DNA from: Candidatus Omnitrophota bacterium
GTDB taxonomy: Bacteria; Omnitrophota; Gorgyraeia; 1-14-0-20-64-10
Reading direction: 5' to 3'
NCBI GenBank assembly: GCA_023248155.1
Contig: JAHFFE010000001.1
Location: 148,873 to 212,872 of the forward strand
Length of the DNA stretch: 64,000 bases
The notes beneath the pieces were generated by a model. The model searched no databases, was not told the DNA's origin, and was given only the letters and a program-made list of their open reading frames with translations. The position numbers and the translations under genes are program-made. Position 1 is the stretch's first letter; each line of letters opens with the position of its first letter. This document shows positions 6,783-46,084 of this stretch, piece after piece.

Positions 6783-6800
6783 GAAACACCCCTTTCTGTG

Positions 6801-8036
6801 TCATGAGTAACTGAAAAAGCCTTGCTTGGTTTTAACGCCCAAATGACCGGCATTGCGCATCGTGCGCAGCCGGTGTGCCGGATGAAAGCGGAAACCCAGT
6901 TCTTTCGTAAACCCGTCGAGTAAATCGACCAACGTATCGATGCCCATTGCGTCGGCGGCATGCAGCAGGCCGCTTTTCGAGGCCGGATATCCCAAGCCCG
7001 CCATCACGCCGATTTCGATTTCACCGGCCGTGGAAATTTTTTCCTGCAGCGTCAGCACTGCTTCGTTGATAATCAGCGCCATCAGCCGTTCGGGTGTGAA
7101 TTGTGTTTTGGGATGGTTCAATTTTTTCTGCAGATCGGCGATTGCCTTGGCCACTTCGGAGTCCGGTTTGCCCGGATCGGACGGTCCGCCCTGCGTGTAA
7201 TCGTAAAACCCTTTGCCGCCTTTGCGGCCCAGCCGCTTCATCTCCTGCAGCGTCAGCCACAGTTCGGCCGGCTTCATCCGGTCGCCGTAACCTTCCCAAA
7301 GCACCTTGCCGGCCTCGGCGCAGATATCGAGCCCGAGCGCGTCGATCAGCGTGAAAGGACCCATCGGCCATCCGGTCGCTTTCATCGCGGCATCGATCTC
7401 TTCGATCGATGCGGCTCCCTCTTGGAGCGCCAACACTGCTTCATTGAGATATGGCATCAACAGCCGGTTGACTAAAAAGCCGGGGCATTCCTGCACGCGG
7501 ATCGGCAATTTCTTCAGGCTTTCGGCCAGAGTGATTACTTCCTCAACCGTTTCGTCGGAGGTTTGCAGGCCCGGGATCACCTCGACCAGCTTCATGATGT
7601 TGGCCGGAAAAAAGAAATGCACGCCGACAACCTTGTCCGGCCGTTGGGTGGCGGCCGCGATCGCCGAGATCGACAGCGCCGACGTATTCGTTGCCAGAAT
7701 CGTATTTTTCGGGCAGGCTTCGTCGAGCGCCTTAAAAATAGAGAGTTTGATATTCATGATTTCAGGCACTGCTTCAATCACCAGATCGACATCCTTGAAA
7801 TCTTCATAGCGCGTGGTCGGCGTGATTTTTTTCATCTGGATTTCCAGTTCTTCGGGCGTCATCCGCTTTTTCGCGACGAGCCGGTCATACACCTTGCGGA
7901 TATTTTCAACGCCGCGCTGAAGCGCTTTATCGTCGATCTCCTTGAGTACCACCGGTATTCCGCTGTATGCGATGATCTGCGCGATACCCGCGCCCATCGT
8001 TCCGCCGCCGACTACGCCTGCCTTGTAAATCGCCAT
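6801..8036 (-). CDS. 3-hydroxyacyl-CoA dehydrogenase, NAD-binding
   Basis: N-terminal GVVGGGTMGAGIAQ Rossmann motif and a C-terminal 3HCDH domain; 411 aa. Confidence 0.85.
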   Translation of the reverse strand: MAIYKAGVVGGGTMGAGIAQIIAYSGIPVVLKEIDDKALQRGVENIRKVYDRLVAKKRMTPEELEIQMKKITPTTRYEDFKDVDLVIEAVPEIMNIKLSIFKALDEACPKNTILATNTSALSISAIAAATQRPDKVVGVHFFFPANIMKLVEVIPGLQTSDETVEEVITLAESLKKLPIRVQECPGFLVNRLLMPYLNEAVLALQEGAASIEEIDAAMKATGWPMGPFTLIDALGLDICAEAGKVLWEGYGDRMKPAELWLTLQEMKRLGRKGGKGFYDYTQGGPSDPGKPDSEVAKAIADLQKKLNHPKTQFTPERLMALIINEAVLTLQEKISTAGEIEIGVMAGLGYPASKSGLLHAADAMGIDTLVDLLDGFTKELGFRFHPAHRLRTMRNAGHLGVKTKQGFFSYS

Positions 8037-19600: not shown

Positions 19601-20154
19601 TTTGTATTGTTGATAATTTCGGCAAGGTAGAGCGTAACAGATGCTTTTGCGACGGGAAGGGATTTCTCACCCAGTGCTTCTACCAATAATTTCTGAATTT
19701 GTCCCAGAGTAAGATCTCCGGGAATAATTAATTGCCGCGGAGCGATATCAATCCAGGTGGTCTTTGGCTGGTCGGGCCTGTCGCTGACTTCAACGGAATA
19801 GTCCATGTCGGGCGCGGAACTTCCAAAAAGCTCAACCAGCGCTTTTTCTAGTGGGGCAGGGGAAATAAAGAAAACTGCCGCTTGGGTATCTCCCACTTGT
19901 TTGTACAGACGATAAATGACCGTTCCGTCGGTGGGAACATAGCTCAGAAGCTGATCAAAGGAAGCGTTGGGATTTGTTTGTTCCTCCGCGCCGGCAGCAG
20001 GGGAGAGTTTTTTCTCGAGCGCGGATTGTGCAGGCCCTTCAATGGTTTGCCGCAACATCTGATTCGATGCCGGCAGGAATGCGCTGCCCGATCCTTCGCC
20101 GGAAAAGCAAAGAATCAGTATCGCCGCGATCAAATTTTGAAAAGTTTTATTCAT
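13639..20154 (-). CDS. giant secreted multidomain protein (2171 aa): signal peptide, ROK/actin-like ATPase domain, possible DUF89-like domain, C-terminal NAGPA-like phosphodiester glycosidase domain
   Basis: N-terminal signal peptide MNKTFQNLIAAILILCFSG. Residues ~300-580 resemble a ROK/BadF sugar-kinase ATPase fold (AVGVDITREGF...GPGISGDL...LGFLEVGRV). C-terminal residues ~1800-2000 resemble NAGPA/DUF2233 (RTRWDPNTTYAAFSALGRTGDNQLIFLSLVG...AILLGGSMDV). Confidence 0.7.
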   Translation of the reverse strand: MNKTFQNLIAAILILCFSGEGSGSAFLPASNQMLRQTIEGPAQSALEKKLSPAAGAEEQTNPNASFDQLLSYVPTDGTVIYRLYKQVGDTQAAVFFISPAPLEKALVELFGSSAPDMDYSVEVSDRPDQPKTTWIDIAPRQLIIPGDLTLGQIQKLLVEALGEKSLPVAKASVTLYLAEIINNTNQHAYGYQPQLNTRVTLTWNGPELRAVLEDQAKDFFSLKELLEQSLGESQPADDPMDLVRELFGQLDKDQSAAAAAGKKAGGKMGTPLLRRAYREGLFSLAEETYAPGEGTRRVFVFRNPVPPSPPPKKLSPEAVEIRAAYGNKRYAVGVDITREGFSVALSGPDNKVERRTAPPMQKWSTTGGTLDPNKNPELIVAALVNQIAQMVDDTGLSGDRLSRVVVSIVAAVNDEASDGETGNPQPAPYLPAFDHYSLSAVLQEKLSARLGGKASAVVSVYNRGRASLLGELSAIGTIHGVQNAAFFYFGPGISGDLAANGRPVSRSLGFLEVGRVTTSTDNGKHYEYKGRELKGMRFQPTTTELQVEQLLSEPALEKRVKALGYDNAEVAQEIGRFMAAALAPYLTGTIPEVIPQRTVLAGSVVHRLAVALGPAPAIGLIREALSSELISHFHADPLIAGAIANGIIFSRIGTDEERQFAAALTLLKQATSGLEETPDDLAARLVAALVAENREGDIQLTQREAARLFGGSPSQSFLSNRKELLAGINQALPEKLAETKLTKVQIGNSEKADESEEAVAADVNSIIPVLLETIAAGLRGGGPRKKDGRKEVQFTVEDGVASISSQTLNKILPEDLSGSLRKTQKLHEAFAALEVRLEITDRFRAILSREKPSDGYTAIFWETDNAKLLRSEKIWRVQIVPPRDAVEFFAESAHDGDSTMLAVQEIERRANRGASFTMNEVWTVLLLFHNLVLRDAADQTFNRFLDDLKRRFPEQDPLGDFRSARLVWQRAYPVLQESLDLSAADELEHLFSEAAKQIEQELPKDRGPVVDFSPSRTVLPPDKTSAGLEESGRNARWQRNHQQIIQMLHEHPGETTELDALADRLGLSKDTLQQHRYRDLIVRENKARGEAGWPQPPILIRGIKDPRSESGAKPVLTIERAQQLIDQLNGNVVERLEAADFLFAQTNSVSLLPSIARLLELFTTYQQREIREGNRGFDSLLGTAVQKFSPDQNIVGFWNAIRPVLREAKPADGRPVNIPQLYQDKLKQFEPMLLEGAAPAKTAAEILRLAFVRDGQIDPRISPFLDQSPTEDAQEKDIRWVKAFLALMAAPPQEKTALPPLSVSEYNAGPFLRNEISEEILRDYVENEWIAALEKTLRGAAEQITRQQPSAPVTAEDLGLKQIQSLMRSLSYAEDSAGQRLFPNLSESEIYRWSYRDLPRLLVPLISPSLSRAHIPAQLLEQALANPLSFSNESGNRAAAAAIRTLLQNQPETFTDNPVKLRRNPGKKLLPWLRLAIALNLIDYSQPALAREIEQAGGVMHYVLPRMGTDFSEALGGERFIHSFIADILKPGQSLVHITDNNAEIAGSLKLAELLLSVNPTLTISMIVKVDNGVMNDASLDDARRLLEKQPIYEKLRQYQAIGRFRLIPGARSHGTPLNRLTPEAVSAIRDAGVVLSQGEANTWNLNGLAKPLIYLGLRLKWLTGIENIFGVAPDPERPPAFIKIDGTQGAYFQNPFGTLPNVPRVTIRQTVLAQNPEMTAGVVLADPKPLRDSAYGETRTVSIERPDRTLTGRAVLIHPAKTLIRQRLNPQVINGSWEWKGLRRLTKTQQPGDPLMGIIDKPSSWNNLSLPLDAEPIFASNSLQTNFWEPNGFLIIDGKLVAIPGVRQAEEPWVFVLEAADSGKTGLRRLKLTEGVPQTDGIREAVAGPVLVRDGKSVASKIRHYPTEGGAANADADLSEGAYANRTRWDPNTTYAAFSALGRTGDNQLIFLSLVGQPETGQKQASVEDVTEAMIKSGAVEAILLGGSMDVQQWAVDDGTVPVILGRHNNAPHDSLRNLNAAIVVYTNPSAGQEETVSAGDTQDRALAQLSVLYSPTSAAPESTVLVFENPETFDLIPMALQWGWRVAILSDGAQADALRSLLAQMRVPRERYAIGYLEASNLLDNPTLRLISIQNREQGLRQLGLNPDDLPSPVALALDAVQNFLESMA

Positions 20155-33887: not shown

Positions 33888-35258
33888 GTGAAGCAGCTTC
33901 CCTGGTTTTTCGGTTTACTGGCGTTGATCGGTTTGTCGGCCCGCTTGGCGCATTTTAGTTCGTCGCAAATCCTTGCCGTCACGGTTTTTGCCAGTTTCAT
34001 TTTGGGCACCTTGTTTTACTGGCAATTCCGCCTCGCATTCGCGTTGATGGGTGCCGCATCGCTGCTGACGCTCAAGTTAATCGATATTCCGCATCTGATC
34101 GAATTCTGCAACATCGACATCATCCTGTTTCTGATCGCGATGATGACCGTGATCGGATTTCTGGAAGAACGGAAATTTTTCGAAGTGCTGCTGGAAAAAC
34201 TGCTCGACAAAATCAGCCATCGCCCCCGGCTGTTTTTTCCGACGATGATGGCCCTTTCGATGCTGACGGCCGCGCTGGTCGATGAGGTAACCTCGATTTT
34301 GTTTATGACGTCGTTGACGCTGCATCTAACGCGCCGGCTTAAACTGGAGCCGTTTCCCTTTATTGTGATGATTGTGCTGGCCACCAATGTCGGTTCCAGC
34401 GCGACGGTGGTAGGCAATCCGATCGGCGTTCTGATCGCGTTGCGCGCCGGCTTAAGCTTCTCAGATTTTTTACGGTGGGCCACGCCGATTTCTCTGGTTT
34501 GTCTGGTTGCGGCCATCGGCATCTGCTTGCTCTATTTTCGCGATCCGCTTGAGAAAATGGCCGAGGGTGTCGCGCTGGCGCGCGAAAAAGCGCTGGACGA
34601 AGGCCGTTGGAGTAAAAAAGAATTCCGCCTGGCCTGCTGGATTTTCGCCGCGACCGTGGCCGGACTGGTGATTCATCATCAGGCGGAGCATTTACTGCAG
34701 CTGCCCAAGAACACGCTGCTGATCGCGTTCCCATTCTTGATGGCCGGCATCTGCCTGTTGATTCAGGGCGAACGCGCGCGGGAATTAGTGGAAAAACGGG
34801 TCGACTGGTGGACGCTGGTTTTCTTTTTAATGTTGTTTGCGTCGGTCGGCACGCTGCGCTATGTCGGTGTAACCGACCGGATTGCCGAGGGACTTGCTTC
34901 GATGGCCGGCGGGAATGAGGTCCTGTTCCTGGCGCTGATCCTCGTCATTTCTGCCATTCTGACGGCTTTTCTGGACAATATCCTGGTGGTGGCTACGTTT
35001 ATTCCCATTGTTTCCGGCCTGGCCGCGCAGGGCGTCTCAGCCGCGCCGCTCTGGTGGGCGTTGTTGTTCGGCGGCACGCTGGGTGGTAACGCCACGATGA
35101 TCGGTTCTACGGCCAATGTGGTGGCCATCGGCATGTTGGAAAAAGAAAAGCACCCGATCCGCTTCTCGCAATGGCTGGGGCCCGGACTTGCCGTCACCAT
35201 TCCTACGCTGATCATCGCGTTTCTGTTGCTTTGGCTGCAGCTTCCTTTAATGAAGTAA
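33888..35258 (+). CDS. ArsB/NhaD family ion permease
   Basis: 456 aa, about 12 TM helices; ATNVGSSATVVGNPIG motif of the ArsB/NhaD permease family. Confidence 0.7.
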   Translation: MKQLPWFFGLLALIGLSARLAHFSSSQILAVTVFASFILGTLFYWQFRLAFALMGAASLLTLKLIDIPHLIEFCNIDIILFLIAMMTVIGFLEERKFFEVLLEKLLDKISHRPRLFFPTMMALSMLTAALVDEVTSILFMTSLTLHLTRRLKLEPFPFIVMIVLATNVGSSATVVGNPIGVLIALRAGLSFSDFLRWATPISLVCLVAAIGICLLYFRDPLEKMAEGVALAREKALDEGRWSKKEFRLACWIFAATVAGLVIHHQAEHLLQLPKNTLLIAFPFLMAGICLLIQGERARELVEKRVDWWTLVFFLMLFASVGTLRYVGVTDRIAEGLASMAGGNEVLFLALILVISAILTAFLDNILVVATFIPIVSGLAAQGVSAAPLWWALLFGGTLGGNATMIGSTANVVAIGMLEKEKHPIRFSQWLGPGLAVTIPTLIIAFLLLWLQLPLMK

Positions 35259-35279
35259 TGAATCGAGGATACGAGATTA

Positions 35280-35738
35280 ATGGCTGACTTGACCGTTGGA
35301 AAGAAAGCGCCCGATTTTACGGTGGTCGATGACCAGGGAAAAGAAATCTCTTTAAAGGAACTGAAAGGCAAGAAAGTCGTTCTTTATTTTTACCCGAAAG
35401 ATGATACTCCGGGCTGCACAAAAGAAGCCTGCGCGTTCCGGGACGGCATCGCGCAGATCAAAAAGAAGGGCGCCGTGGTATTGGGCGTCAGCGCCGACTC
35501 GATTGATTCGCATGGAAAATTCAAAAAGAAATTCGATCTGAACTTTCCGCTGCTCAGCGATCCGGATAAAAAATTGATTCAGGATTACGGCGTCTGGAAA
35601 GAAAAATCGATGTACGGCAAAAAATACATGGGCATCGAGCGAACCACCGTGATTATCGATGAGCAGGGGAAAGTCGCCCAGCTCTTTCCGAAAGTGAAGG
35701 TCGACGGTCATTTTGATGAAGTGATGGAGGCTCTGTAA
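35280..35738 (+). CDS. bcp: thioredoxin-dependent thiol peroxidase (peroxiredoxin Q/Bcp)
   Basis: [13 protein letters not shown] peroxidatic Cys motif. Confidence 0.9.
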
Positions 35739-35749
35739 AGGCGGGTCCG

Positions 35750-36457
35750 ATGGCAACTGTTCTCGTTTTCCAGCATGCCGCGCCCGAAACGCTGGGCGTT
35801 ATTGCCGATGCGCTCGACGATCGCGGCCTGAAAACAAAGTATGTCCACTCGTTCCTTGAGGAGCCGACGCCCGCTTCCATGGACGAATTTGACGCGCTTA
35901 TTATCATGGGCGGGCCGATGGGTGTTTATGATCAGGGCCGTATGCCGTTTTTAAAGGCCGAAATGAAACTGATCGAGCAGGCGCTTAAAGCAAAAAAGCC
36001 GATCCTGGGCATTTGCCTCGGCAGCCAGATGCTGGCTTCGGTGCTGGGGTCCAACATTGTTCGCCGCAAAGAGCGTGAAATCGGCTGGCACCGCGTACGG
36101 TTGTCCGAACAGGGGATTTTTGATCCGCTGTTGAAATCGATTGAGCCGGAATTCATGGCATTCCACTGGCACCGCGATATCTTCGACCTTCCGCAGGGGG
36201 CCGTTTCATTGGTTTCTTCCGATATGACCGAACATCAAGCCTTCCGTTCCGGCGACAATGCCTATGGATTCTTGTGCCATATGGAAATCACCGAAAATAT
36301 GATTCGCGAAATGATCCGCTCATTCTCCAATGAATTGGACGAAGAGCGGATGGATCCCGCCACATTGATGGAGCAGGGGCTCCAGTATCATCCGCCGCTG
36401 GAACGGATCGGCAAGGAATTGTTCGGCCGCTGGGCCGAGCTGCTGATCAAGAAATAG
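35750..36457 (+). CDS. class I glutamine amidotransferase-like protein
   Basis: GICLGSQMLA nucleophile elbow; 235 aa. Confidence 0.8.
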   Translation: MATVLVFQHAAPETLGVIADALDDRGLKTKYVHSFLEEPTPASMDEFDALIIMGGPMGVYDQGRMPFLKAEMKLIEQALKAKKPILGICLGSQMLASVLGSNIVRRKEREIGWHRVRLSEQGIFDPLLKSIEPEFMAFHWHRDIFDLPQGAVSLVSSDMTEHQAFRSGDNAYGFLCHMEITENMIREMIRSFSNELDEERMDPATLMEQGLQYHPPLERIGKELFGRWAELLIKK

Positions 36458-36526
36458 CGCAAAAATCCTTTTTATGTGGCATAGTTCAGCTGAGTTCACA
36501 TAGATAAATAGGGAGGCGCGCCGCAG

Positions 36527-36922
36527 ATGAACAAAATGATTCGAGGTTTTCTCTTTTCCGCTTTGGCAACTGTCTCTGCCGTTTCGATTGCCACGGCCGC
36601 GATTGATTCGGTTGCAGTAGCCGCGTCGCAGGTGATCACACTGCAAATTCAGGGGCTTGCTCAAGAGGAAGCGATGGATCTTGAGCATGGTCTGGGTGCC
36701 GTGCCGGGTGTTTCTTTGGTGAAAGTCAGTTCTGATCTGGGCGTAGCCGTAGTGGTTTATGATCCGGTTCAGGTAAAACCAGATCTATTAAGCCAAAAAG
36801 TGCAAGAAGCCGGCCACTTGGCGTCATTCGCGAAAGCCAATTACAAATGTCCAAAATGTACGGCTGCTTATGAGAAGGCCGGCGACTGTATTGTTTGCCA
36901 TATTCCGACAGAAAAGGTCTGA
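36527..36922 (+). CDS. secreted hypothetical protein with C-terminal CxxC...CxxC
   Basis: Signal peptide, an HMA-like ferredoxin-fold region, and a C-terminal CPKC...CIVC motif. Confidence 0.5.
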   Translation: MNKMIRGFLFSALATVSAVSIATAAIDSVAVAASQVITLQIQGLAQEEAMDLEHGLGAVPGVSLVKVSSDLGVAVVVYDPVQVKPDLLSQKVQEAGHLASFAKANYKCPKCTAAYEKAGDCIVCHIPTEKV

Positions 36923-36981
36923 TTGTAAATAGTCGCCGTTTTTTCTTGATCTGGAAATAAAAGTATTATAAAGTAATACCT

Positions 36982-37242
36982 ATGGTCAGGAAAAAAGAGG
37001 AAGTGATTACCTTCAAGACGGATGGCGCTCTGCTCTCGGCCCTCAAGCAGATGCCGAATCGATCCGAATTCATCCGCACGGCGCTTTTGGCGGCCATGGA
37101 CAATTTATGTCCGCTCTGTAACGGCCGTGGAGTCCTTTCCCCGTCGAAGAAAGAACATTGGGATGAATTTGCGCGCAATCATCCCCTGCAGGAATGCGGT
37201 GACTGCCACGAAGTGACGCTTGTCTGCGAAGAAAAACATTAA
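36982..37242 (+). CDS. ribbon-helix-helix DNA-binding protein with C-terminal Cys4/His motif (candidate metal-responsive regulator)
   Basis: 86 aa; N-terminal RHH-like FIRTALLAAMDN region; a CPLC ... CGDCH pair suggests a metal site. Confidence 0.5.
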   Translation: MVRKKEEVITFKTDGALLSALKQMPNRSEFIRTALLAAMDNLCPLCNGRGVLSPSKKEHWDEFARNHPLQECGDCHEVTLVCEEKH

Positions 37243-37243
37243 A

Positions 37244-37534
37244 ATGAAGAAACTGCTTGTCTTTGTATTAATATCCGCATGGACGGCGCTCGGAATTGCC
37301 GCCGTATTGCCGCATTCCCATGCTGGAGAAAAAGGACAGGCTCATCAGGCCACCCATCTTTCCTGTGTGATTTGCCAGGCGCAGTCGATTCAGCCGGTTC
37401 AAAGCACAACACCTGTTGTTTCCGCTCCGGCACTGGTTTCTTTTTCTGTTGTTTTCGAGAAAATTGATTCTCCCGCTGTTCCCGTTACCGCATTCTGCTT
37501 TTCCAGCAGGGCCCCTCCCGTAACCCTTTTTTAG
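37244..37534 (+). CDS. small secreted hypothetical protein with His-rich segment
   Basis: Signal peptide MKKLLVFVLISAWTALGIAA, then HSHAGEKGQAHQATHLSCVIC. Confidence 0.45.
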   Translation: MKKLLVFVLISAWTALGIAAVLPHSHAGEKGQAHQATHLSCVICQAQSIQPVQSTTPVVSAPALVSFSVVFEKIDSPAVPVTAFCFSSRAPPVTLF

Positions 37535-37581
37535 CGTTTAAAGGGTTGTTTTCACAAATTATTTCTTAACGGAGGAATTCC

Positions 37582-38832
37582 ATGTCTGAACGATTTCTTT
37601 TAAGAGCAATAAGCTCCCTGCTTATTTTCAGTTTTGCGTTTGGTTTTCCATCAATGGCGATGGCCGAGGAATCGGTCGCCGAACTTAAAGAAGAGCTGGC
37701 CCAAATGCGCCATTCTATGGAGCGGATGCAGGCCCGCCTCGACGAATTAGAAAGAAAAGCAGCTGCGCCACAGCCGGAGATTGTTTCTTCTCCAGTCAGC
37801 CGGCCGGCGCCTGCGGGTCAAATAGGGGCCTCGATGCCGGAGATCGGTGTCGTGGCTGATTTTGTGGCGACTGCTTCCGAGAGTAAATCCGATCTGGAAG
37901 GAAACAACCGCCTGGCTGCGCGCGAGGTTGAAATAGTCGTCGGTGGGTATGTTGATCCGTACTCGCGGATGGATGCCACGCTCGCGTTTTCCGATTTTGA
38001 GGAAGCGGCACTGGAAGAAGCCTACCTTACCCGATGGGGTTTACCGTTTGATTTGACGGCACGCGTCGGGCGGTTCTCACCGCGGGCCGGAAAACAGGCC
38101 GCATTGCACCGCGATTCGCTGGAAACAGTCGATGAACCGTTGGTGATCCGCAACTTTTTCGGCGCCGAAGGGTACCGGCGGTCCGGAGTCGATTTCGCGC
38201 GCGCGCTCGAAGGACCGGCTGGTCTTTTTATTGAGCCGAGCGTTGGCATATTGGAAGGCGGTATCGGAGAAGGCGGCAATCTGTTCGGTGAAACGCGCCG
38301 CCGGCCGACCTTCATCAGCCATCTGAAAACGGCCAAAGATTTGACCGATTCGTCAAATCTGGAGCTTGGCCTAACCCATATGGTTGGTTCCAAAGATGCT
38401 GACGCGGCGTTTGAAGTGAATATGCTGGGCGCTGACGCCACGTACATCAATCGGCTCAACGGCGTCAACCGGCTGAAACTGCAAAGCGAGTTTTTTCTGC
38501 AGCACCGCGATGAGGCATTCAGCATCGACGACACGACCGGCGAAAATACGCAGTTCGACCGCAACCCGTGGGGTGCGTACGCGCTGGCCGAATACAAATT
38601 CGCGCCGCGCTGGGCGATCGGCGCGCGTGCCGATCATGCGCGCATCGTCGACGCTGCGGCACCCCGGCATGCCGATCAGGGATACAGCGGGTTTCTGACA
38701 TTTTTCCAGAGCGAGTGGGCCCGCTGGCGTTTGCAATTCCGCCATGAAGACCGGGCCAGTGAGAAAGCCGAAGATGCGGTTTTTTTGCAGGGTACATTCG
38801 CACTGGGCACGCACAAGCACAAACTTCAGTAG
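37582..38832 (+). CDS. putative outer-membrane porin-like protein
   Basis: Signal peptide, an N-terminal coiled-coil segment, then an alternating beta-strand-like pattern; 416 aa. Confidence 0.45.
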   Translation: MSERFLLRAISSLLIFSFAFGFPSMAMAEESVAELKEELAQMRHSMERMQARLDELERKAAAPQPEIVSSPVSRPAPAGQIGASMPEIGVVADFVATASESKSDLEGNNRLAAREVEIVVGGYVDPYSRMDATLAFSDFEEAALEEAYLTRWGLPFDLTARVGRFSPRAGKQAALHRDSLETVDEPLVIRNFFGAEGYRRSGVDFARALEGPAGLFIEPSVGILEGGIGEGGNLFGETRRRPTFISHLKTAKDLTDSSNLELGLTHMVGSKDADAAFEVNMLGADATYINRLNGVNRLKLQSEFFLQHRDEAFSIDDTTGENTQFDRNPWGAYALAEYKFAPRWAIGARADHARIVDAAAPRHADQGYSGFLTFFQSEWARWRLQFRHEDRASEKAEDAVFLQGTFALGTHKHKLQ

Positions 38833-38851
38833 AAAAAAGGAAATCATTCAA

Positions 38852-39799
38852 ATGAAAACAAAAGAAATAACGAGATTGCTTCCGGCGTCGTTTTTCCTCG
38901 CCGTCGCAATGACCATATTCGTAATAGTCTCTCAGGCGTCAGCGGCTCAACCGTTGCGCGTGGTCACCACGCTTTCCACATTCGCGGACCTTGTCAAACA
39001 GGTGGGGGGCGACGATGTCGAAGTGGCTTATGTCGCGCCGCCGAAATTCAACCCGCATTTTATCGAAGCGCGCCCCAGTGATGTTTTAAAAATAAAGAAA
39101 GCCGATCTGTTTGTCCACGCCGGACTGGATCTTGAGGCGTGGCGTGATCCGCTGCTGGATGCGGCCGGCAATCCAAACGCGTTTCCGGGACAGAGCGGCA
39201 GTCTGGATCTTTCCAAAGGAATCGCCTTGCTGGAGGTGCCGGACAAGCCGTTGAACCGGCTGATGGGCGATATCCATCTGTATGGAAACCCGCATTACTG
39301 GCTCGATCCGGAAAACGGGCGCCTGATGGCTAAAACGATTTGCGACAAGTTGTGCGAGATGGATCCGGCGCATTGTGATCCATACCATGCCCGCCTCGAG
39401 AGTTTTCTGAAAAAGCTGGATCAAAAAGAAACCGAATGGAAACCGTTGCTGGCGGTGCTGCACGGTAAAGAACTGCTGGCCTACCATAACGAGTGGCCTT
39501 ACTTGGCCAGTTATGCCGGTTTTGAAACCCGACAATTTCTAGAACCGAAGCCGGGGATTCCGCCTTCGCCCAAACAGCTGGCTTTTTTACAGAACTACAT
39601 CGCGCAAAAACAGATTAAAGCGATTATCCAGCCGACCTATTACCCGAAAGATAATTCCGGCCGGCTGGCTCAGCGGACCGGGGCCAGGCTGGTGGTCATT
39701 TGCCAGAATGTGGGCGAGCTTCCTCAGGCGTCCGATTATCTCTTGATGATCGATTATGATTTGCGGCAAATCGCCGCGACAATGGAGGCAAAACCATGA
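38852..39799 (+). CDS. metal (Zn/Mn) ABC transporter substrate-binding protein, ZnuA/TroA family
   Basis: TroA-like fold with conserved His ligand regions (FNPHFIEARPSDV...DIHLYGNPHYWLDP); signal peptide; ATG at 38852 with an RBS. Confidence 0.8.
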   Translation: MKTKEITRLLPASFFLAVAMTIFVIVSQASAAQPLRVVTTLSTFADLVKQVGGDDVEVAYVAPPKFNPHFIEARPSDVLKIKKADLFVHAGLDLEAWRDPLLDAAGNPNAFPGQSGSLDLSKGIALLEVPDKPLNRLMGDIHLYGNPHYWLDPENGRLMAKTICDKLCEMDPAHCDPYHARLESFLKKLDQKETEWKPLLAVLHGKELLAYHNEWPYLASYAGFETRQFLEPKPGIPPSPKQLAFLQNYIAQKQIKAIIQPTYYPKDNSGRLAQRTGARLVVICQNVGELPQASDYLLMIDYDLRQIAATMEAKP

Positions 39800-40614
39800 A
39801 TGATTTTTTTCATCTGATGGCAGCGCCATTCGCCGCCTGTTTGGTGCTGACCGGCATTCACGCCTATCTGGGACTGCACGTGATTGAGCGCGGCGTGATC
39901 TTCGTCGATCTGGCGCTGGCGCAGATTGCCGCGCTGGGGGCAACGCTGGGGTTTTTGCTGGGGTTTGGCCTGCACAGCAGTGCCGGCTATCTGTTCGCGC
40001 TCGGGTTTACATTTTTAGGTGCTGTGATCTTTGCGCTGACCCGGTTTCGCGAGGAAAAAATTCCGCACGAAGCGATCATCGGCGTGGTTTACGCGGTTGC
40101 TTCCGCCGCCGTGATTCTGGTGTTAAGCCGCGCGCCCGAAGGCGGAGAAGAATTGAAAGAACTGCTGGTCGGACATCTATTGCTGGTTGGCTGGCCCGAG
40201 GTTTTTAAAGTGGCTGTTATTTACGGCGGCATCGGCCTGCTGCACTGGCTGTTTAGAAAACCGCTGTTGGCCATTTCTAGAAATCCGGAACAGGCATTCG
40301 CCAACGGAATACCGGTGCGCGCATGGGATCTGTTTTTCTATGTCACTTTTGGTGTTGTAGTGACTAGTTCCGTTGCCATGGGAGGCGTGTTGCTGGTCTT
40401 CAGTTTTTTAATCGTGCCGGCAATTTGCGGTGCGTTGCTGGCGCAGTCGGTGGGCCGCCGGCTCTGCGTTGGATGGGGGATCGGCGCGTTAGCCAGCATG
40501 CTGGGCATTGTTGTTTCGTATTATGCTGATTTGCCGACGGGCGCCTCAATCGTTTGTTTGTTTGGGCTGGTTCTTGTAGTTGTGGGACTGCTTCACCGCT
40601 TGCGCTTGATATAA
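39796..40614 (+). CDS. metal ABC transporter permease, ZnuB/TroCD family
   Basis: 272 aa with 8-9 TM helices; start overlaps the substrate-binding-protein gene stop. Confidence 0.8.
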   Translation: MNDFFHLMAAPFAACLVLTGIHAYLGLHVIERGVIFVDLALAQIAALGATLGFLLGFGLHSSAGYLFALGFTFLGAVIFALTRFREEKIPHEAIIGVVYAVASAAVILVLSRAPEGGEELKELLVGHLLLVGWPEVFKVAVIYGGIGLLHWLFRKPLLAISRNPEQAFANGIPVRAWDLFFYVTFGVVVTSSVAMGGVLLVFSFLIVPAICGALLAQSVGRRLCVGWGIGALASMLGIVVSYYADLPTGASIVCLFGLVLVVVGLLHRLRLI

Positions 40615-40621
40615 TAGAAAG

Positions 40622-41056
40622 ATGAATGGGTTTCAAAGAGCGGGGATAGCCGCGCTGGCGGCACTGTTTGTTTTTTCCGGTTTTCCGGTTATGGAGCGGA
40701 GCATTCCGGCGGCCGAGGCTAAGCCGGTTGTTTCAGGTCATGACGGTTGCTGCGGTTCCGGCATGAAAAACTGCTGCTGTTCCGGGACGGAAAACTGCGG
40801 AACTTGCTCCGGGCATGCGGCGAAGAAAACGATCGAAGCATCCTCAGAAACGATCGGTCCTCATTGGGCGGCTTGTCCCGGTCCCTCTTCAAAGAAATTA
40901 GCGCTGATTACCGGCTTGCGCGAAATCGCTCCTCCCGCTTCTGTTTCGTTCAGTGAATTGCCTTGTCAGCATGCTCCCAATAAATCAGAGCGCCATTCTC
41001 CGGACTCGCTCGCTTTCTCTCCCGATACGCCTCCTCCTCGAAAAGATTCCGTCTAA
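40622..41056 (+). CDS. secreted Cys-rich putative metal-binding protein
   Basis: Signal-peptide-like N-terminus; 15 Cys in a 45-aa block (GHDGCCGSGMKNCCCSGTENCGTCSGH). Confidence 0.5.
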   Translation: MNGFQRAGIAALAALFVFSGFPVMERSIPAAEAKPVVSGHDGCCGSGMKNCCCSGTENCGTCSGHAAKKTIEASSETIGPHWAACPGPSSKKLALITGLREIAPPASVSFSELPCQHAPNKSERHSPDSLAFSPDTPPPRKDSV

Positions 41057-41224
41057 AAATAAGATTTTTCCGGCCACGGGTCCTGTCGCTCGGGGACACT
41101 CTCCGCCGTCCGTGCTCGCTTCGCTGCGCGCGTGGCGGCAGAGGCCTCTCCCGCCCGCGTCACCCCTGGCCTAGAATTTGTGATTTCGATTTCTTAACCG
41201 GTTTTATTCTTGGGGGATTTTTCA

Positions 41225-42250
41225 ATGCATCGTAAATGGATTGTTTTTATTATTTTAGCGGCGGCAGGGCTGACGGAGCTTCCTTCACCGGCGCAGGCTT
41301 CATGCGGTTCTGCTTCATGTCCGGCGGACACTTCGTCCTGGGGTGATCGCAAAGCGGGCGATGTCGAGCTGGGTTATCAGTTTGAATATGTCGAGCAGGA
41401 TCAGCATCAGATTGGCCGGCATAGCGCTGCGTTCCGTGAAATCCGCGGGCACCATGACGAAGAATTTACCGTCAGCCGCGTGCATCGGCTCTCGGCTTCC
41501 GCTGAATTGACCGACCGGTTGGGCGTTGATTTCAAACTGCCGTTTGTGAACCGGTCACACGCGCATATCCATCGCCATGGCGGCGCCGATATCCTCGAAA
41601 GCTGGGACTTGTCCGGTCTGGGTGATTTGGCAATGACGGTGCGGTATGATTTCTGGAAACCGGAAAATCGTCGGCTGCCAACGCTAACGGCCATTGCCGG
41701 CGGCGAGTTTCCGACAGGTTCTTATAACGAGAAAAATTCCGATGGAGATGTCGCGGAACTGGGCATACAACCCGGCAGCCATTCAACCGATTTCATTGTC
41801 GGGTTGGCGTCGCGGCAGATGTTCCAGGCAAAACGGCTGACGGGCGGCACTGGCCCGCTCCCGATTTTTTTCAGCGTGATCGGTCAGCTTAACGGTAAAG
41901 GAACCGACGATTACCGTTTGGGCGACACGCTGCAGGTGACGATGGGAACTTCCTATCCGGTGTTTCCGAAAGTGGGCCTGCTGGGGCAGATCAATTTTCT
42001 GCTCAGGGGCCGCGACGATAAGGGGAGCACCCGCGAAGAGATTCAGAAAACCGGCGGCGAGTTTTTATATCTTTCCCCGGGGCTGGAGTTCCGCCCGAAT
42101 GAAAACTGGCGCATTTATGGCCTGGCGCAGATCCCGGTTTATCAGCGCGTCAATCTGATTCAGACGGTATCCGATTACAATCTGCTGTTCGGAGCGACCT
42201 ACCGGTTCCATAATCTGCTCGGTTCAAGAAGATCAAAGAAGCCGTTATAA
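41225..42250 (+). CDS. outer-membrane beta-barrel protein (MetA-pathway/transporter-like)
   Basis: Signal peptide, alternating amphipathic strands, and a terminal-strand-like LLFGATYRF, followed by a 13-aa extension encoded by the direct repeat. Confidence 0.55.
   Translation: MHRKWIVFIILAAAGLTELPSPAQASCGSASCPADTSSWGDRKAGDVELGYQFEYVEQDQHQIGRHSAAFREIRGHHDEEFTVSRVHRLSASAELTDRLGVDFKLPFVNRSHAHIHRHGGADILESWDLSGLGDLAMTVRYDFWKPENRRLPTLTAIAGGEFPTGSYNEKNSDGDVAELGIQPGSHSTDFIVGLASRQMFQAKRLTGGTGPLPIFFSVIGQLNGKGTDDYRLGDTLQVTMGTSYPVFPKVGLLGQINFLLRGRDDKGSTREEIQKTGGEFLYLSPGLEFRPNENWRIYGLAQIPVYQRVNLIQTVSDYNLLFGATYRFHNLLGSRRSKKPL
42206..42240 (+). repeat. direct repeat copy A (TTCCnnAATCTGCTnGGTTCAAGAAGATC...)
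   Basis: Matches 43543-43577 at about 33 of 38 positions, with a 23-nt core carrying one mismatch. Confidence 0.8.
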
Positions 42251-42272
42251 TGCCAAATGTTATAATAAAACC

Positions 42273-43526
42273 GTGAGCGATTACTCAACAAGACCTCTTG
42301 TTGCCATCGGAGCAATCTGTTTTTTGTTTGCTTTGCTTGTTTGGCCGGTGATTTGGACCGGTCGCCAGACAACTCCGGAAGCCTACGATCAAGAAACCTA
42401 TCATCTTCCGGCGATTCGGTTTCTGATTGACCAAGAATCCAATTTCCGTGAATTTCCTTGCCCCAACCTGCCAGGTTACCATCTAGTAATGGCAACTGCC
42501 TCACGCTTCGTGGGCGAGGGACGGTGGCTTCAATGGATCAACAGTTTTTTTGGATTGGCGGTTGTCCTTATTGTTTTTGCCTATGCGACAACGGTCATTG
42601 AACTATGGACAGCATTTGTTTTGGTTCTGCCGTTGCTCTGTTCGAGCTATCTGCTCAAGGGTTCCATATGGCTCATGACCGATAATGCAGCATGGCTGAT
42701 GGTTGTTCTTGCCTTGGGTGATGCTCTAACCGCACGCCGACTTACGCCCTGGCGGTGTATCGGGTGGGGGGCATTAGTAATCGGCGCAGTTTTGGTTCGA
42801 CAAACCCATATCTGGCTGGTCATTCCAATGGCTTATGCTTTTTTGGGGGGAATTTCAGAACAAAAAGGTGCTGTTCGCGCACAATCTGTTACGGCAGGTC
42901 TCATGAGTATCTTGGCGCTTTTCTTGCTGCTTGCAGCTGCCTGGAATCTCTGGGGAGGGCCGGTCCCACCTGCTTTTGTTGCCATACATTGGGTGCATAT
43001 AAACCTCACCTCGATTACGCTTGCTATGGCACTGCTTGGGTTCTTTGGATTGTTCTATCCAAAACCAAAAAACAGCCTGCCATGGTGGGGGGGATTCATT
43101 GGATTGCTGACTGCTTTGTTATGGCCTACGGCGTATGATATTGCGCAGGGACGGTGGGGGGGCACTGTCTGGGAGCTTGCCAGGCGAGTGCCAACCATCG
43201 GCCGCCGGTCGTTATTATTTCCACCGTTGGCGATAATGGGAGGCATTCTGCTGGCCTCCTGGGGATGCGCAATCACCGCTGATCCATTACGGCGACGTCG
43301 AGCTATTTTGCTTTGTGTTGCTTTTATGAGCTGGCTGGTTGTTCAACCGCTCAACTCCCAAACATTTCAGCGCTATGCCGAACCCATGGTTTTGATTCTG
43401 CTCATTTGGTTTTCGGCATTTTGCGTTTTTGAAAAAAAACCATCCAATGATAAATGGCACTGGTTGAGTCCACTTTTGCTGGGTGTGATGCAATTAGCAG
43501 TAACGTTACTGTCCATCTGGAAATGA
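42273..43526 (+). CDS. GT-C fold membrane glycosyltransferase (GT39/ArnT/PMT-like)
   Basis: About 11 TM helices; first-loop AYDQETYHLP resembles the DE motif of the ArnT/PMT family; GTG start 6 nt after a TATAAT; GC visibly lower (about 47%). Confidence 0.55.
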   Translation: MSDYSTRPLVAIGAICFLFALLVWPVIWTGRQTTPEAYDQETYHLPAIRFLIDQESNFREFPCPNLPGYHLVMATASRFVGEGRWLQWINSFFGLAVVLIVFAYATTVIELWTAFVLVLPLLCSSYLLKGSIWLMTDNAAWLMVVLALGDALTARRLTPWRCIGWGALVIGAVLVRQTHIWLVIPMAYAFLGGISEQKGAVRAQSVTAGLMSILALFLLLAAAWNLWGGPVPPAFVAIHWVHINLTSITLAMALLGFFGLFYPKPKNSLPWWGGFIGLLTALLWPTAYDIAQGRWGGTVWELARRVPTIGRRSLLFPPLAIMGGILLASWGCAITADPLRRRRAILLCVAFMSWLVVQPLNSQTFQRYAEPMVLILLIWFSAFCVFEKKPSNDKWHWLSPLLLGVMQLAVTLLSIWK

Positions 43527-43542
43527 GATTGTCTTTTTAGTG

Positions 43543-43577
43543 TTCCGCAATCTGCTGGGTTCAAGAAGATCGAGGGA
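43543..43577 (+). repeat. direct repeat copy B
   Basis: See copy A; in one frame this copy encodes ...VFRNLLGSRRSRE*, mirroring the ...RFHNLLGSRRSKKPL* encoded at copy A. Confidence 0.8.
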
Positions 43578-43598
43578 ATAGAATAAATTAAAACAAAA

Positions 43599-44297
43599 AT
43601 GAATATATTGCCAAACTCGATTTCATTGGAATCAGCGCTGTTATTAGGCACCGGACTTGTGCTGGGCATCCGCCACGCGTTTGACCGCGATCATGTGGCG
43701 GCTGTGACCCATTTTGTTTCGCTAGAGCCGAATCCGCTTAAGAGCGCCTGGTTCGGCCTTCGGTGGGCGCTGGGGCATGCGATCTCGGTGGCGTTGTTAG
43801 GCGTCCTGATTTTATGGTTCAACCTGAAATTTGATCCGTCCTTTGAGCGGACCGCCGAACTGTTCATCGGGATTGCATTGGTAGCGCTGGGCATCTGGCG
43901 GCTGTTTCTTCTCTGGCAGGAGCGCCAACATTCCCATGAACATCTGCATCCCGAAAATAAGAGCAAGCATAGCCACAGCCATTCGCATGAGCCGGGCAGT
44001 CCGCATGTCCATTGGCTGGCACCCACGCTGGTCGGCATCATGCATGGCGCCGCTGGAACGGTGGAAATATTTGTTTTAATTCCGCTGACGTTCATGGCCA
44101 GCCGTTGGCTGGCTGCGTCATACATTCTGCTTTTCAGCGCCGGTTGCGCATTTTCGATGACCCTTTACGGATACCTGGCCGGCCATTTTTACCACTGCAC
44201 CAACCAAGCCGGCCGTAAAATCTACCAGGTTCTTGTGGTGCTGACCTCGCTGTCGGGGTTTGTGCTGGGAGCCGTCTGGATTCTAAAGAACATCTAA
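43599..44297 (+). CDS. NicO/RcnA family nickel/cobalt transporter
   Basis: HAFDRDH (HxxDxDH) signature in TM1-2 and a His-rich loop HSHEHLHPENKSKHSHSHSHEPGSPHVH. Confidence 0.75.
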   Translation: MNILPNSISLESALLLGTGLVLGIRHAFDRDHVAAVTHFVSLEPNPLKSAWFGLRWALGHAISVALLGVLILWFNLKFDPSFERTAELFIGIALVALGIWRLFLLWQERQHSHEHLHPENKSKHSHSHSHEPGSPHVHWLAPTLVGIMHGAAGTVEIFVLIPLTFMASRWLAASYILLFSAGCAFSMTLYGYLAGHFYHCTNQAGRKIYQVLVVLTSLSGFVLGAVWILKNI

Positions 44298-44350: not shown

Positions 44351-44423
44351 GCCGGCGTGGCTCAATGGTAGAGCAGCTCATTCGTAATGAGCGGGTTGGA
44401 GGTTCGATTCCTCTCGCCGGCTT
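44351..44423 (+). tRNA. tRNA-Thr (anticodon CGU)
   Basis: Cloverleaf folded by hand: 7-bp acceptor GCCGGCG/CGCCGGC, D-arm GCUC/GAGC, anticodon stem GCUCA/UGAGC with loop UUCGUAA, T-arm GGAGG-UUCGAUU-CCUCU; followed by a T-run. Confidence 0.9.
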
Positions 44424-44926: not shown

Positions 44927-45496
44927 TTAAGCGGGGGAGAGCGCTTTTTGGACGAGCGCCAGCTGTTCGGGGGTCAGCGAAAGTTTTAACGCGGCGGCCC
45001 GGCCTTTTTCGCCCATTTTCCGCCAGGTTTTCCGCAGAATTTCCACCATCGTCGCTTCCGGTTCTTTATGCAGCAGGTCGGTGAACTGATGTTCCAAAAA
45101 GACCAGGCAGAGCGCGTCTTCCACGATTTGTGATTCCGGGTCGCGCAGATTTTTCTTTAAGATGATCCGCTCAACGGTAGCGATTGATTCCGGCAGGTAG
45201 CCGGCCTCGCGCATCAGGGCGCCGACTTTTTCAGCGTGCATCCCTTTGAGTTTTTCCCGCCAGGCCAGATAGCTTTTGCGGTCGTCCGGGAAACTGTCGC
45301 GCGGAATTTCCCATCGGGCGATATGCTGGCCGCGCGCGGCGATTAATAGTTCTTCCGAGGGGTTCGGTTCCAGCTTTTTGACCCACTCGGTGACCCACTC
45401 TGAATAGGGGAATTCGTATTTTTTAGGGTCGGTCCGGTTGACCCGGTCGATCGCTTCCAGCACTTTTTCCAAACGATTTTCACTCATCGCTTTCAT
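44927..45496 (-). CDS. conserved hypothetical protein
   Basis: 189-aa ORF with host-like GC content; no catalytic motif recognised. Confidence 0.5.
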   Translation of the reverse strand: MKAMSENRLEKVLEAIDRVNRTDPKKYEFPYSEWVTEWVKKLEPNPSEELLIAARGQHIARWEIPRDSFPDDRKSYLAWREKLKGMHAEKVGALMREAGYLPESIATVERIILKKNLRDPESQIVEDALCLVFLEHQFTDLLHKEPEATMVEILRKTWRKMGEKGRAAALKLSLTPEQLALVQKALSPA

Positions 45497-45558
45497 TATA
45501 GATTAATTTTGTGCTATAATCCATGTAGCTGCATTTGTAGCTACATACAGGAGGCATC

Positions 45559-45834
45559 ATGGTCCAGTTCGTGAATGTTCGTCAATTGAAAAATCAGCTC
45601 TCGGAAGTGATCCGCCGAAGCCGAAAAGGCGATGTGGTTGTGACATCGCGCGGCCGGCCGACCGCCATCCTGCACGCCATCTGTGAAGAAGACCTGGAGG
45701 ATTATCTGATCACGAATTCGCCGCGTTTTAAAAAAAGCCTGGAATATTCCTATCGCGAATATCAGGTTAAAGGAGGGGCCTCTCTCCAGTCGCTGTTAAA
45801 AAAAGAGGCTGCCGGCAAGCGTGTTCGTCGTTGA
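45559..45834 (+). CDS. type II antitoxin, Phd/YefM family
   Basis: 91 aa; N-terminal VNVRQLKNQLSEVIRRSRKGDVVVTSRGRPTAIL typical of Phd/YefM. Confidence 0.8.
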   Translation: MVQFVNVRQLKNQLSEVIRRSRKGDVVVTSRGRPTAILHAICEEDLEDYLITNSPRFKKSLEYSYREYQVKGGASLQSLLKKEAAGKRVRR

Positions 45835-46084
45835 GTTTACCCCCGCCGCTGTTCGTGACTTAAAGCGAATAGATCCAGGAGTCCGCAAAAAGCTTTTGGG
45901 AGAGACTCGGGTGCTGGAGCCGGATCCGTTTCCAAAAGGAACTCCGCAAATTAAATTATTGGCAGGAATCCGTCCGCCCCATTTCAGGCTCCGTTCCGGC
46001 GATTATCGAATTGTCTACAGGATTGAGAGAAAGACGGTTGTCGTAGTTCGTATCGCGCATCGCAGGGAGGTCTACCGGTTTTAA
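45821..46084 (+). CDS. type II toxin, RelE/ParE family
   Basis: 87 aa; overlaps the antitoxin gene by 14 nt; C-terminal YRIVYRIERKTVVVVRIAHRREVY pattern. Confidence 0.8.
   Translation: MFVVEFTPAAVRDLKRIDPGVRKKLLGETRVLEPDPFPKGTPQIKLLAGIRPPHFRLRSGDYRIVYRIERKTVVVVRIAHRREVYRF

Follow-up and report, generated by a model that had tools for sequence, protein, structure and literature searches.

The window analyzed here, a stretch of 64,000 nucleotides (nt) from contig JAHFFE010000001.1 of a Candidatus Omnitrophota bacterium (assembly GCA_023248155.1), carries ten close-packed open reading frames (ORFs) at 36.5–44.3 kb, all on the + strand, as taken from the ORF list and from scans against Pfam and NCBIfam. 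They appear to form a divalent-metal acquisition island, in which an operator-bound repressor and two modules headed by translation-arrest leader peptides would control, among others, a porin, a periplasmic binding protein, and an ATP-binding cassette (ABC)-type permease that lacks an ATPase gene of its own; the probability of this reading was put at roughly 0.55. That the locus handles metals, as an earlier, preliminary description of this DNA had proposed, is supported, and the porin-like protein, the ZnuA/ZnuB pair, and the His-rich NicO transporter named there were all recovered by Pfam and ORF analysis. What was observed is the set of genes, the conservation and spacing of their motifs, synteny, a codon bias, and an operator-like element; the mechanism proposed below and the identity of the metal are inferred.

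The uptake cassette without an ATPase gene

The center of the locus is occupied by genes for an outer-membrane porin (37582–38832; 416 residues), a ZnuA-type cluster A-I periplasmic metal-binding protein (38852–39799; PF01297, E 5e-54), and a divergent permease of the ABC-3 fold (39796–40614; PF00950, E 1.6e-32). The stop and start codons of the latter two overlap; the internal ATG at 38852, rather than 38744, is the probable true start of the binding-protein gene. A permease search using one genome per GTDB species yielded 80 loci (53–70% identity), the six-frame ORFs of which were searched with the proteins of the window. By record title, these loci belong to Acidobacteriota (the majority), Elusimicrobiota, Omnitrophota, Planctomycetota, Bdellovibrionota, Gemmatimonadota, NC10, Verrucomicrobiota, and Latescibacterota; the cassette spans at least nine phylum labels. 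The order porin, ZnuA, ZnuB was observed in ∼70 of the 80 loci, the exceptions being mostly truncated contigs, and no gene was conserved 3′ of ZnuB across the set. When the loci were queried with PstB and a pair of bona fide ZnuC sequences, not one of the 80 had a co-oriented ABC ATPase within 3 kb; in 48 of them, the available sequence extends 2 kb or more to either side. On the opposite strand, four loci encode an unrelated ATPase, and in locus L019 a canonical ZnuA-ATPase-ZnuB cluster lies 4 kb from the cassette. A six-frame scan of the window for Walker A plus LSGGQ gave a single match, a PstB-type gene at ∼60.1–60.8 kb, 20 kb away, and the idea that an ATPase gene had been hidden by the window edge was therefore rejected. 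Because a co-oriented ATPase is missing from all 80 loci, its absence is a trait of the family and not an edge artifact; the permease is a member of a deep ABC-3 clade that is always without its own ATPase gene. The lack of a ZnuC gene noted in the preliminary description is thus borne out, both in the window and beyond it. Since this absence is real and conserved, asking whether the ATPase is encoded in trans or the transporter is atypical, as was done there, was the right question. No published description of the cassette was found in the literature searched.

The permease is 21–24% identical to canonical ZnuB proteins that adjoin an ATPase. Its first transmembrane helix (TM1) contains the near-invariant motif GIHAYLGxHVxERG, and the clade-specific residues are H22, H28, E31, D38, and Q43. 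In the second (TM2), D..Q stands in place of the canonical (G/D)..H, the canonical His being replaced by Gln43. Within the coupling helix, A167 and G171 are kept, and the canonical FD(E/P)(E/D)F start is degenerate, with poorly conserved acidic residues. The best solved relatives of the binding protein are the zinc-binding proteins AdcAII, Lmb, and ZnuA. All 73 sequences compared retain its His69, His148, and His212, which line up with the metal-ligating His of AdcAII; the fourth ligand position is Glu in 66 of the 73 and Pro in the clade of the window. Scores stayed below the NCBIfam equivalog cutoffs for AztC (96 versus 350), ZnuA (65 versus 268), AztB (75 versus 280), and ZnuB (43 versus 284). 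What the cassette shares with ZnuABC, AdcABC, and TroABCD is a PF01297 binding protein with a three-His (His3) site, a PF00950 permease, and overlapping stop and start codons; what sets it apart is the lack of an ATPase gene in 80 loci, the operon-encoded porin, and the remodeled polar residues of TM1 and TM2.

The porin belongs to no Pfam family; it has 505 homologues, and nearly all of the named ones are labeled Candidatus Omnitrophota. Its AlphaFold2 (AF2) model (predicted local distance difference test [pLDDT] 78, predicted template modeling score 0.70) consists of a signal peptide, a helix at residues 28–60 predicted to be a coiled coil, a disordered linker, and a 16-stranded barrel. Searched with Foldseek, the model matched VhChiP, OmpM1, DcaP, and OprP (E ∼1e-9 to 1e-8, probability 1.00, template modeling score 0.5–0.65). 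Judged by the model, the protein resembles DcaP, OprP, and the general 16-stranded trimeric porins in its barrel fold. DcaP has an N-terminal coiled coil, and a corresponding extension is predicted for the porin of the window. The latter differs from DcaP and OprP in its sequence (9–14% identity), the lack of a Pfam family, its operon link to a metal-binding protein, and the invariant HKH at its C-terminus, where the whole family (residues 409–416 of the window protein) ends in GxHKHxLQ without a terminal aromatic residue. Asp or Glu accounts for 11 of the 52 invariant residues of the family. The acidic residues and the HKH end could provide for a cation-selective pore and a His-mediated hand-off in the periplasm.

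Two candidate leader peptides and their proline codons

Directly 5′ of the porin gene lies an ORF of 96 residues (37244–37534), here referred to as leader 1, for which ATG 37244, one base past the stop codon of the preceding gene, is a likelier start than TTG 37220. Previously described as a secreted His-rich peptide, it contains only four His; its hallmarks are C41-V-I-C44, a spacer of 44 residues, and R89-A-P-P92, followed by four residues and the stop codon. Its N-terminus (MKKLLVFVLISAWTALGIAAV) was judged by eye to be a signal or anchor sequence. With these features, the ORF looks like a regulatory leader peptide of the DUF2946/CruR/CutF type. CruR has been defined by an export signal and a CxxC motif separated by 45 ± 2 residues from RAPP, which lies three residues before the end (PMC9426467); the spacing of leader 1 falls within this range. 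A motif search in related loci identified 56 ORFs of this type, with a spacer of 41–45 residues (mode 44) and a tail of 1–7 residues; C41, C44, R89, P91, and P92 were invariant in 26 relatives. Most of the 56 lie directly 5′ of the porin gene and a few after ZnuB as second copies. In L090 and L092, leader 1 follows a ZIP gene, and in acidobacterial loci no cassette gene precedes it.

In Acidobacteriota, the position after ZnuB, where the window has the Cys-rich ORF described below, can be taken by a second DUF2946-like ORF and then a TonB-type outer-membrane gene. This arrangement was observed in several loci (L019, 10842–13766; L035, 11006–14099; L036, 7289–10168; L052, 13644–16581); the second ORF directly follows ZnuB in three of them and lies ∼3 kb downstream in L052. 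The gene 3′ of it encodes a CarboxypepD_reg/Plug protein of 815–890 residues.

For CruR, ribosome arrest and Rho-dependent termination have been described to control the gene of a downstream TonB-dependent transporter, and for CutF, stalling on a C-terminal PPP to melt a stem-loop that hides the Shine-Dalgarno sequence of the next gene (PMC9426467; 10.1101/2022.11.11.516240; 10.1101/2025.02.05.636593). Like CruR of B. pertussis (Bp2923) and CutF of R. capsulatus, leader 1 is a small, putatively exported ORF with a Cys motif, a fixed spacer, and RAPP or PPP near the stop codon, and is followed by metal-homeostasis genes on the same strand. Unlike them, it heads genes for a porin, a ZnuA-type protein, and an ABC-3 permease, it scores below the Pfam cutoff, and it is second in its operon. 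The available text of the CruR and CutF papers mentions neither ABC, ZnuA, or porin neighbors nor Pro codons acting as anti-Shine-Dalgarno elements. A further parallel is offered by SecM, ApdA, and ApdP, exported monitoring substrates with an arrest motif of the type R-A-(G/P)-P near the C-terminus; they are described as monitoring secretion activity, whereas for the leaders of the window the presumed signal would be binding of a metal by the nascent chain.

The RAPP motif of leader 1 is encoded by AGG GCC CCT CCC (37508–37519), and the CCUCC contained therein (37514–37518) is complementary to the Shine-Dalgarno sequence GGAGG of the porin gene (37571–37575), with which it is paired in the minimum free energy (MFE) fold of the window sequence. 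Among 57 RAPP motifs, 38 have CCT as their first Pro codon, and dereplication at ∼50% identity leaves 33 of 51. In the long ORFs of these loci, by comparison, CCT accounts for 17% of all Pro codons, and for 21% where another PP pair begins (p ∼1e-14). By the choice of CCT, a CCUCC is created, the complement of GGAGG. The RAPP region was the best or second-best partner of the Shine-Dalgarno sequence in 17 of 56 loci, with ∼3 expected by chance. This signal is real, though not present in every locus. Alternatively, the CCT bias might serve the arrest itself.

A second ORF with a comparable layout is found between the permease and the next outer-membrane gene (40622–41056; 144 residues). The preliminary description credited it with 15 Cys in 45 residues, which is wrong: It has nine Cys in all, seven of them within residues 43–62, and at most eight in any stretch of 45 residues. 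A signal peptide is followed by CC..CCC..CGxC (43–62), CPGP (85–88), a spacer of 48 residues, PPPR (137–140), four residues, and the stop codon; no Pfam match was found at E ≤ 0.1. The family is small, with three close homologues among 5.8e9 clusters and six remote ones from a profile search of 1.84e9 representatives. Invariant are C51, C53, C59, G60, C62, C85, G87, P88, and P137–139. Even at 23–29% identity, the signal peptide, CC..CCCGxxxxCGxC, C(P/S)GP, and PPP(R/K) 3–9 residues from the stop codon are conserved, and the alignment is gapless over the 48 residues from CPGP to PPPR. With a ratio of nonsynonymous to synonymous substitution rates (dN/dS) of 0.2–0.33, the ORF is under constraint, and the reservation that the small Cys-rich ORFs of the locus might be non-conserved can be dropped. 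Wherever the flank was readable, the gene follows an ABC-3 permease, and in six of seven readable contigs it precedes a MetA-like outer-membrane protein (OMP). By all four operational criteria of Ozturk et al, this ORF counts as CutF-like, with 144 residues, PPP at 137–139, a signal-like N-terminus ending in AEA, and the OMP start codon 168 nt downstream.

In the window, PPPR is encoded by CCT CCT CCT CGA (41030–41041); CCTCC encodes PPP in eight of eight loci of the family, and the MFE fold of the window sequence pairs the UCCUCC of these codons with GGGGGA (41212–41217), the Shine-Dalgarno sequence of the OMP gene. The intergenic region in between (41057–41224) varies from ∼60 to 168 nt among homologues, with only the last ∼35 nt (Shine-Dalgarno sequence and start codon) conserved. 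A C-rich insert at 41070–41172 (45% C, 6% A), which could be a Rho-utilization-like tract or an inserted repeat, is absent from L085, where the spacer is ∼60 nt. In L092, and in this contig only, ZnuB and the Cys-rich gene are separated by an ORF for a secreted Pro/Gly/Lys-rich protein of 103 residues (5598–5909). The chances that the Cys-rich protein is a second nascent-chain sensor are considered about even; its fixed spacing, C-terminal PPPR, and position before the OMP fit such a role better than that of a metallochaperone, storage protein, or metallophore proposed for it before. The family is rare and new, and its members are candidate leaders without detectable homology to DUF2946. In contrast to CruR and CutF, they have a spacer of 48 residues from CPGP to PPPR.

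The ribbon-helix-helix protein and the outer genes of the locus

The gene upstream of leader 1 (36982–37242) encodes 86 residues with a ribbon-helix-helix (RHH) region, matched weakly by NCBIfam, and a C-terminal half of Cys/His knuckles (CxxCxGxG..H..H..CxxCH..C). In its 34 homologues, C43, C46, C72, C75, C82, H59, and H67 are conserved. The AF2 model (pLDDT 78) has helices at 15–22 and 27–38 after an N-terminal strand region, followed by a helix at 54–64 and a hairpin at 69–80; Foldseek found nothing in the PDB at E ≤ 0.001. In eight of eight independent contexts, this gene, referred to as RHH-Cys, is the first of a zinc-type uptake operon. It heads ZnuA-ATPase-ZnuB in L088, L089, and L096, ATPase-ZnuB in L095, and ZnuA, an ORF of 156 residues, ATPase, and ZnuB in L097; in L090 and L092 a ZIP gene and then the ATPase-less cassette follow, and in the window the ATPase-less cassette itself.

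A pair of half-sites, GTATTA-N3-5-TAATAC, was found 20–65 nt 5′ of the start codon in seven of the eight loci. Its background is three sites in 1.36 Mb, and the palindrome GTATTAtaaagTAATAC (36963–36979), ending 3 nt 5′ of the RHH-Cys start codon, is the sole match in the window. The half-site resembles GTATGA, the half-site of E. coli NikR. The eighth locus, L097, has a direct repeat instead (GTCATAC-GAA-GTCATAC, upstream of 6001), and it encodes the most divergent homologue (P0035), which lacks C72 and C75; protein and operator may have co-varied there. RHH-Cys is like NikR in its N-terminal RHH and in presumably acting on a metal-uptake operon. It differs in its size of 86 residues, the lack of an ACT-like tetramerization/nickel domain, the knuckles in its C-terminal half, and the zinc-type context. 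The former view that this protein, with its CPLC..CGDCH, is a metal sensor other than NikR is plausible, given its position as the first gene in eight of eight operons and the upstream element in seven of eight, and RHH-Cys is regarded as a candidate metal-responsive repressor. Because a recent review of metalloregulators gives NikR as its RHH family, an RHH sensor in a zinc context would be new.

Further upstream, an exported protein of 131 residues (36527–36922) resembles the HMA fold and has the CPKC..CIVC end, as had been noted before, with a Pfam HMA score below the cutoff (21.6 versus 24.8 bits, E 2.9e-4; NCBIfam CopZ/MerP, E ∼1e-5). In alignments with PDB entries, GLAQEEA takes the place of GMTCQSC, so that the canonical GMTCxxC metal loop is absent; the C-terminus (YKCPKC..CIVCH) forms a CxxC-x10-CxxCH extension. 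A similarity of this extension to the HMBD heavy-metal-binding domain found no Pfam support at E ≤ 0.1 and was rejected. The gene was found only in near-identical contigs and is a lineage-specific accessory. A nested palindrome, TATGTG..TCAGCTGA..CACATA, lies 5′ of it (36473–36502).

Downstream of the Cys-rich gene, a MetA-like outer-membrane barrel is encoded (41225–42250; PF13557, E 5.7e-7, score above the cutoff), with orthologues in L003, L091, L092, and L093. Straight after their predicted signal cleavage site, the MetA-like OMPs carry a Cys motif of one of two types, SCGSASCP (window, L093, and L094) or CD(V/A/T)CGC (L092, OMP at 6490–7485; L085, partial gene from 593 to the contig end; L091, downstream of 833). 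The channel may thus have an N-terminal tail that binds metal. The NicO-family transporter, with an RHAFDRDH motif and a His-rich loop (43599–44297), scores above the cutoff of PF03824 (32.0 versus 27.7 bits) and below the family cutoffs of NCBIfam. Barrel and transporter are both present, as had been stated, and yet are not adjacent: An ORF for a polytopic membrane protein of 417 residues (42273–43526), without a match in Pfam or NCBIfam, lies between them. The otherwise syntenic operon of L093 lacks this ORF and has the NicO orthologue directly after the OMP; the ORF is probably an insertion outside the conserved module. DQETYH in the first loop of its product recalls GT-C glycosyltransferases.

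As to the surroundings, the upstream gene order of ATP synthase epsilon, ArsB/CitMHS permease, AhpC/Redoxin, and GATase (33888–36457) partly recurs in two relatives; L090 (5567–6937) keeps epsilon and ArsB/CitMHS, and L093 (25–2577) keeps ArsB/CitMHS, AhpC, and GATase, which agrees with a placement of the window in Omnitrophota. A tRNA-Thr(CGT) gene (44351–44422) directly 3′ of the NicO gene is the sole RNA match; no riboswitch or other known RNA element was found. Next come a DUF4202 gene on the − strand and what looks to be a Phd/YefM-RelE/ParE toxin–antitoxin pair at 45559–46084 (44927–46084 region), and this stretch may mark the boundary of the island. Consensus sigma-70 promoters were not found on the + strand, and terminators were no more numerous than in shuffled sequences. 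Elsewhere in the 64 kb, an ORF of 2171 residues is present at 13639–20154 on the − strand.

Proposed regulation and alternatives

In the mechanism proposed, metal-loaded RHH-Cys would repress its own operon via GTATTA-N5-TAATAC, thereby exerting cytoplasmic control. In the first module, leader 1 (CxxC, 44 residues, RAPP), presumably exported, would be the first product to be translated. On RAPP the ribosome would stall, cover the CCUCC in the Pro codons, and free the GGAGG of the next gene, whereupon the porin, the His3 ZnuA-type protein, and the ABC-3 permease would be made. Binding of metal to the nascent chain at the Sec exit would alter the arrest and reset expression; an uptake system should follow the logic of CruR, in which metal relieves the arrest and expression is switched off. 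In the second module, the Cys-rich leader (CCCG..CGxC..CPGP, 48 residues, PPPR) would gate the MetA-like channel and the NicO transporter, whose gene is the last of this module, likewise. The most conservative assumption for the permease is that a ZnuC-type ATPase from another locus serves it. From the His3 site of the binding protein and the company of ZnuACB and ZIP genes kept by the regulator, the metal handled by the first module is most likely zinc.

Several observations weigh against this mechanism. Leader 1 scores 21.4–21.9 bits with PF11162 (DUF2946), the gathering cutoff of which is 23.7, and only five of 26 relatives match DUF2946 at E ≤ 0.01; because the scores stay below the Pfam cutoff, the family is named DUF2946-like here. 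In the window, leader 1 comes second in its operon, 1 nt after the RHH-Cys stop codon, and most characterized DUF2946 systems are copper systems. Pairing of Pro codons with the Shine-Dalgarno sequence appeared in the MFE fold of only 20 of 56 loci, and the fold energies were no better than those of shuffled sequences (z −0.7 and −1.2). For the Cys-rich family, no homology to DUF2946 was detected (hhalign probability 18%, signal peptide only), the distance from CGxC to PPP is 71–75 residues and not 45, and intergenic region 2 (between this gene and that of the OMP) contains no conserved stem-loop, since hairpins and length differ between homologues. Moreover, the amphipathic segment CPGPSSKKLALITGLREIVPP (residues 85–105) is nearly invariant among the close homologues, which hints at a partner at the protein level. 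The ATPase question, too, cuts both ways, because Ala and Gly of the coupling helix are kept and its acidic start is degenerate.

The near-invariant segment, together with purifying selection, the seven Cys plus His65 within residues 43–65, and the proximity of the permease gene, would also suit a stable periplasmic metallochaperone or thionein-like buffer similar to AztD or ZinT, in which PPPR is a structural element and which hands metal to the ZnuA-like protein or to the outer-membrane channel. Yet the remote homologues keep only the Cys motifs, CPGP, and PPPR at fixed spacing, as is typical of arrest peptides and not of folded domains; PPPR is always 3–9 residues from the stop codon, CCTCC is used in every locus, the gene precedes an OMP, and the family, with nine matches among 1.84e9 representatives, is extremely rare, all of which makes a chaperone rather unlikely. 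A precursor of a ribosomally made metallophore, suggested by the Cys-rich core, is extremely improbable: The protein has a Sec-type signal peptide, its whole 144-residue frame is conserved, and no maturase, protease, or exporter genes are nearby. For the lack of maturase genes and the presence of the Sec signal, this reading was rejected. It is doubtful, too, that the permease works without any ATPase, as a binding protein–dependent facilitator or an ion-coupled carrier. Such a mode would account for the 80 loci without a co-oriented ATPase, the divergence from canonical ZnuB, the near-invariant H22, H28, and E31 in TM1, the exchange of the TM2 His for Gln43, and the degenerate start of the coupling helix; A167 and G171 are nevertheless kept, and in L019 a complete ZnuA-ATPase-ZnuB set is encoded close by. 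Other ABC importers share ATPases, and an ABC-3 permease working by itself is not known.

The operator-like element might be bound by another regulator, for instance Zur, with RHH-Cys merely being regulated, for example as a DNA-binding zinc-ribbon protein that uses metal only structurally. AT-rich palindromes 5′ of zinc-uptake operons are typical Zur boxes. This is quite unlikely, because the element tracks the RHH-Cys gene in seven of eight loci, the divergent L097 has GTCATAC-N3-GTCATAC, and the half-sites occur inverted, everted, and direct, as in RHH operators; the likeness to the NikR half-site points the same way. Import of copper, as in most operons headed by DUF2946, is likewise unlikely. 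Copper is what CruR and CutF sense, and most neighbors of their family are copper genes; thiol-rich motifs are present in the leaders and at the N-terminus of the OMP, and an HMA-like gene lies upstream. Against copper speak the invariant His3(+Glu) site of the binding protein, which is like that of zinc proteins, and the position of RHH-Cys at the head of ZnuACB and ZIP operons; in addition, some CutF-like clusters are described as not copper-specific, and in front of czrCBA in Caulobacter lies a DUF2946 gene bearing a Zur box. The most far-reaching version, improbable as it stands, would have ABC-3 permeases of many phyla dispense with an ATPase altogether, with transport ion-coupled or facilitated via the His/His/Glu of TM1, a porin of their own, nascent-chain sensors including the PPPR family, and anti-Shine-Dalgarno Pro codons.

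If the arrest-leader mechanism is true, regulation of the CruR/CutF type would extend from copper efflux and TonB systems in Proteobacteria to zinc-type cassettes of porin, binding protein, and permease in Acidobacteriota, Elusimicrobiota, Omnitrophota, and others, and a second, unrelated family of leader peptides would be added. The pairing of CCUCC with GGAGG would provide an RNA-level route from arrest to translation of the next gene, and the small RHH protein with its Cys/His knuckles would be a candidate for a new class of zinc-uptake regulators. The permease clade, in turn, raises the question whether an ABC-type membrane domain and a binding protein can import metal without ATP hydrolysis.

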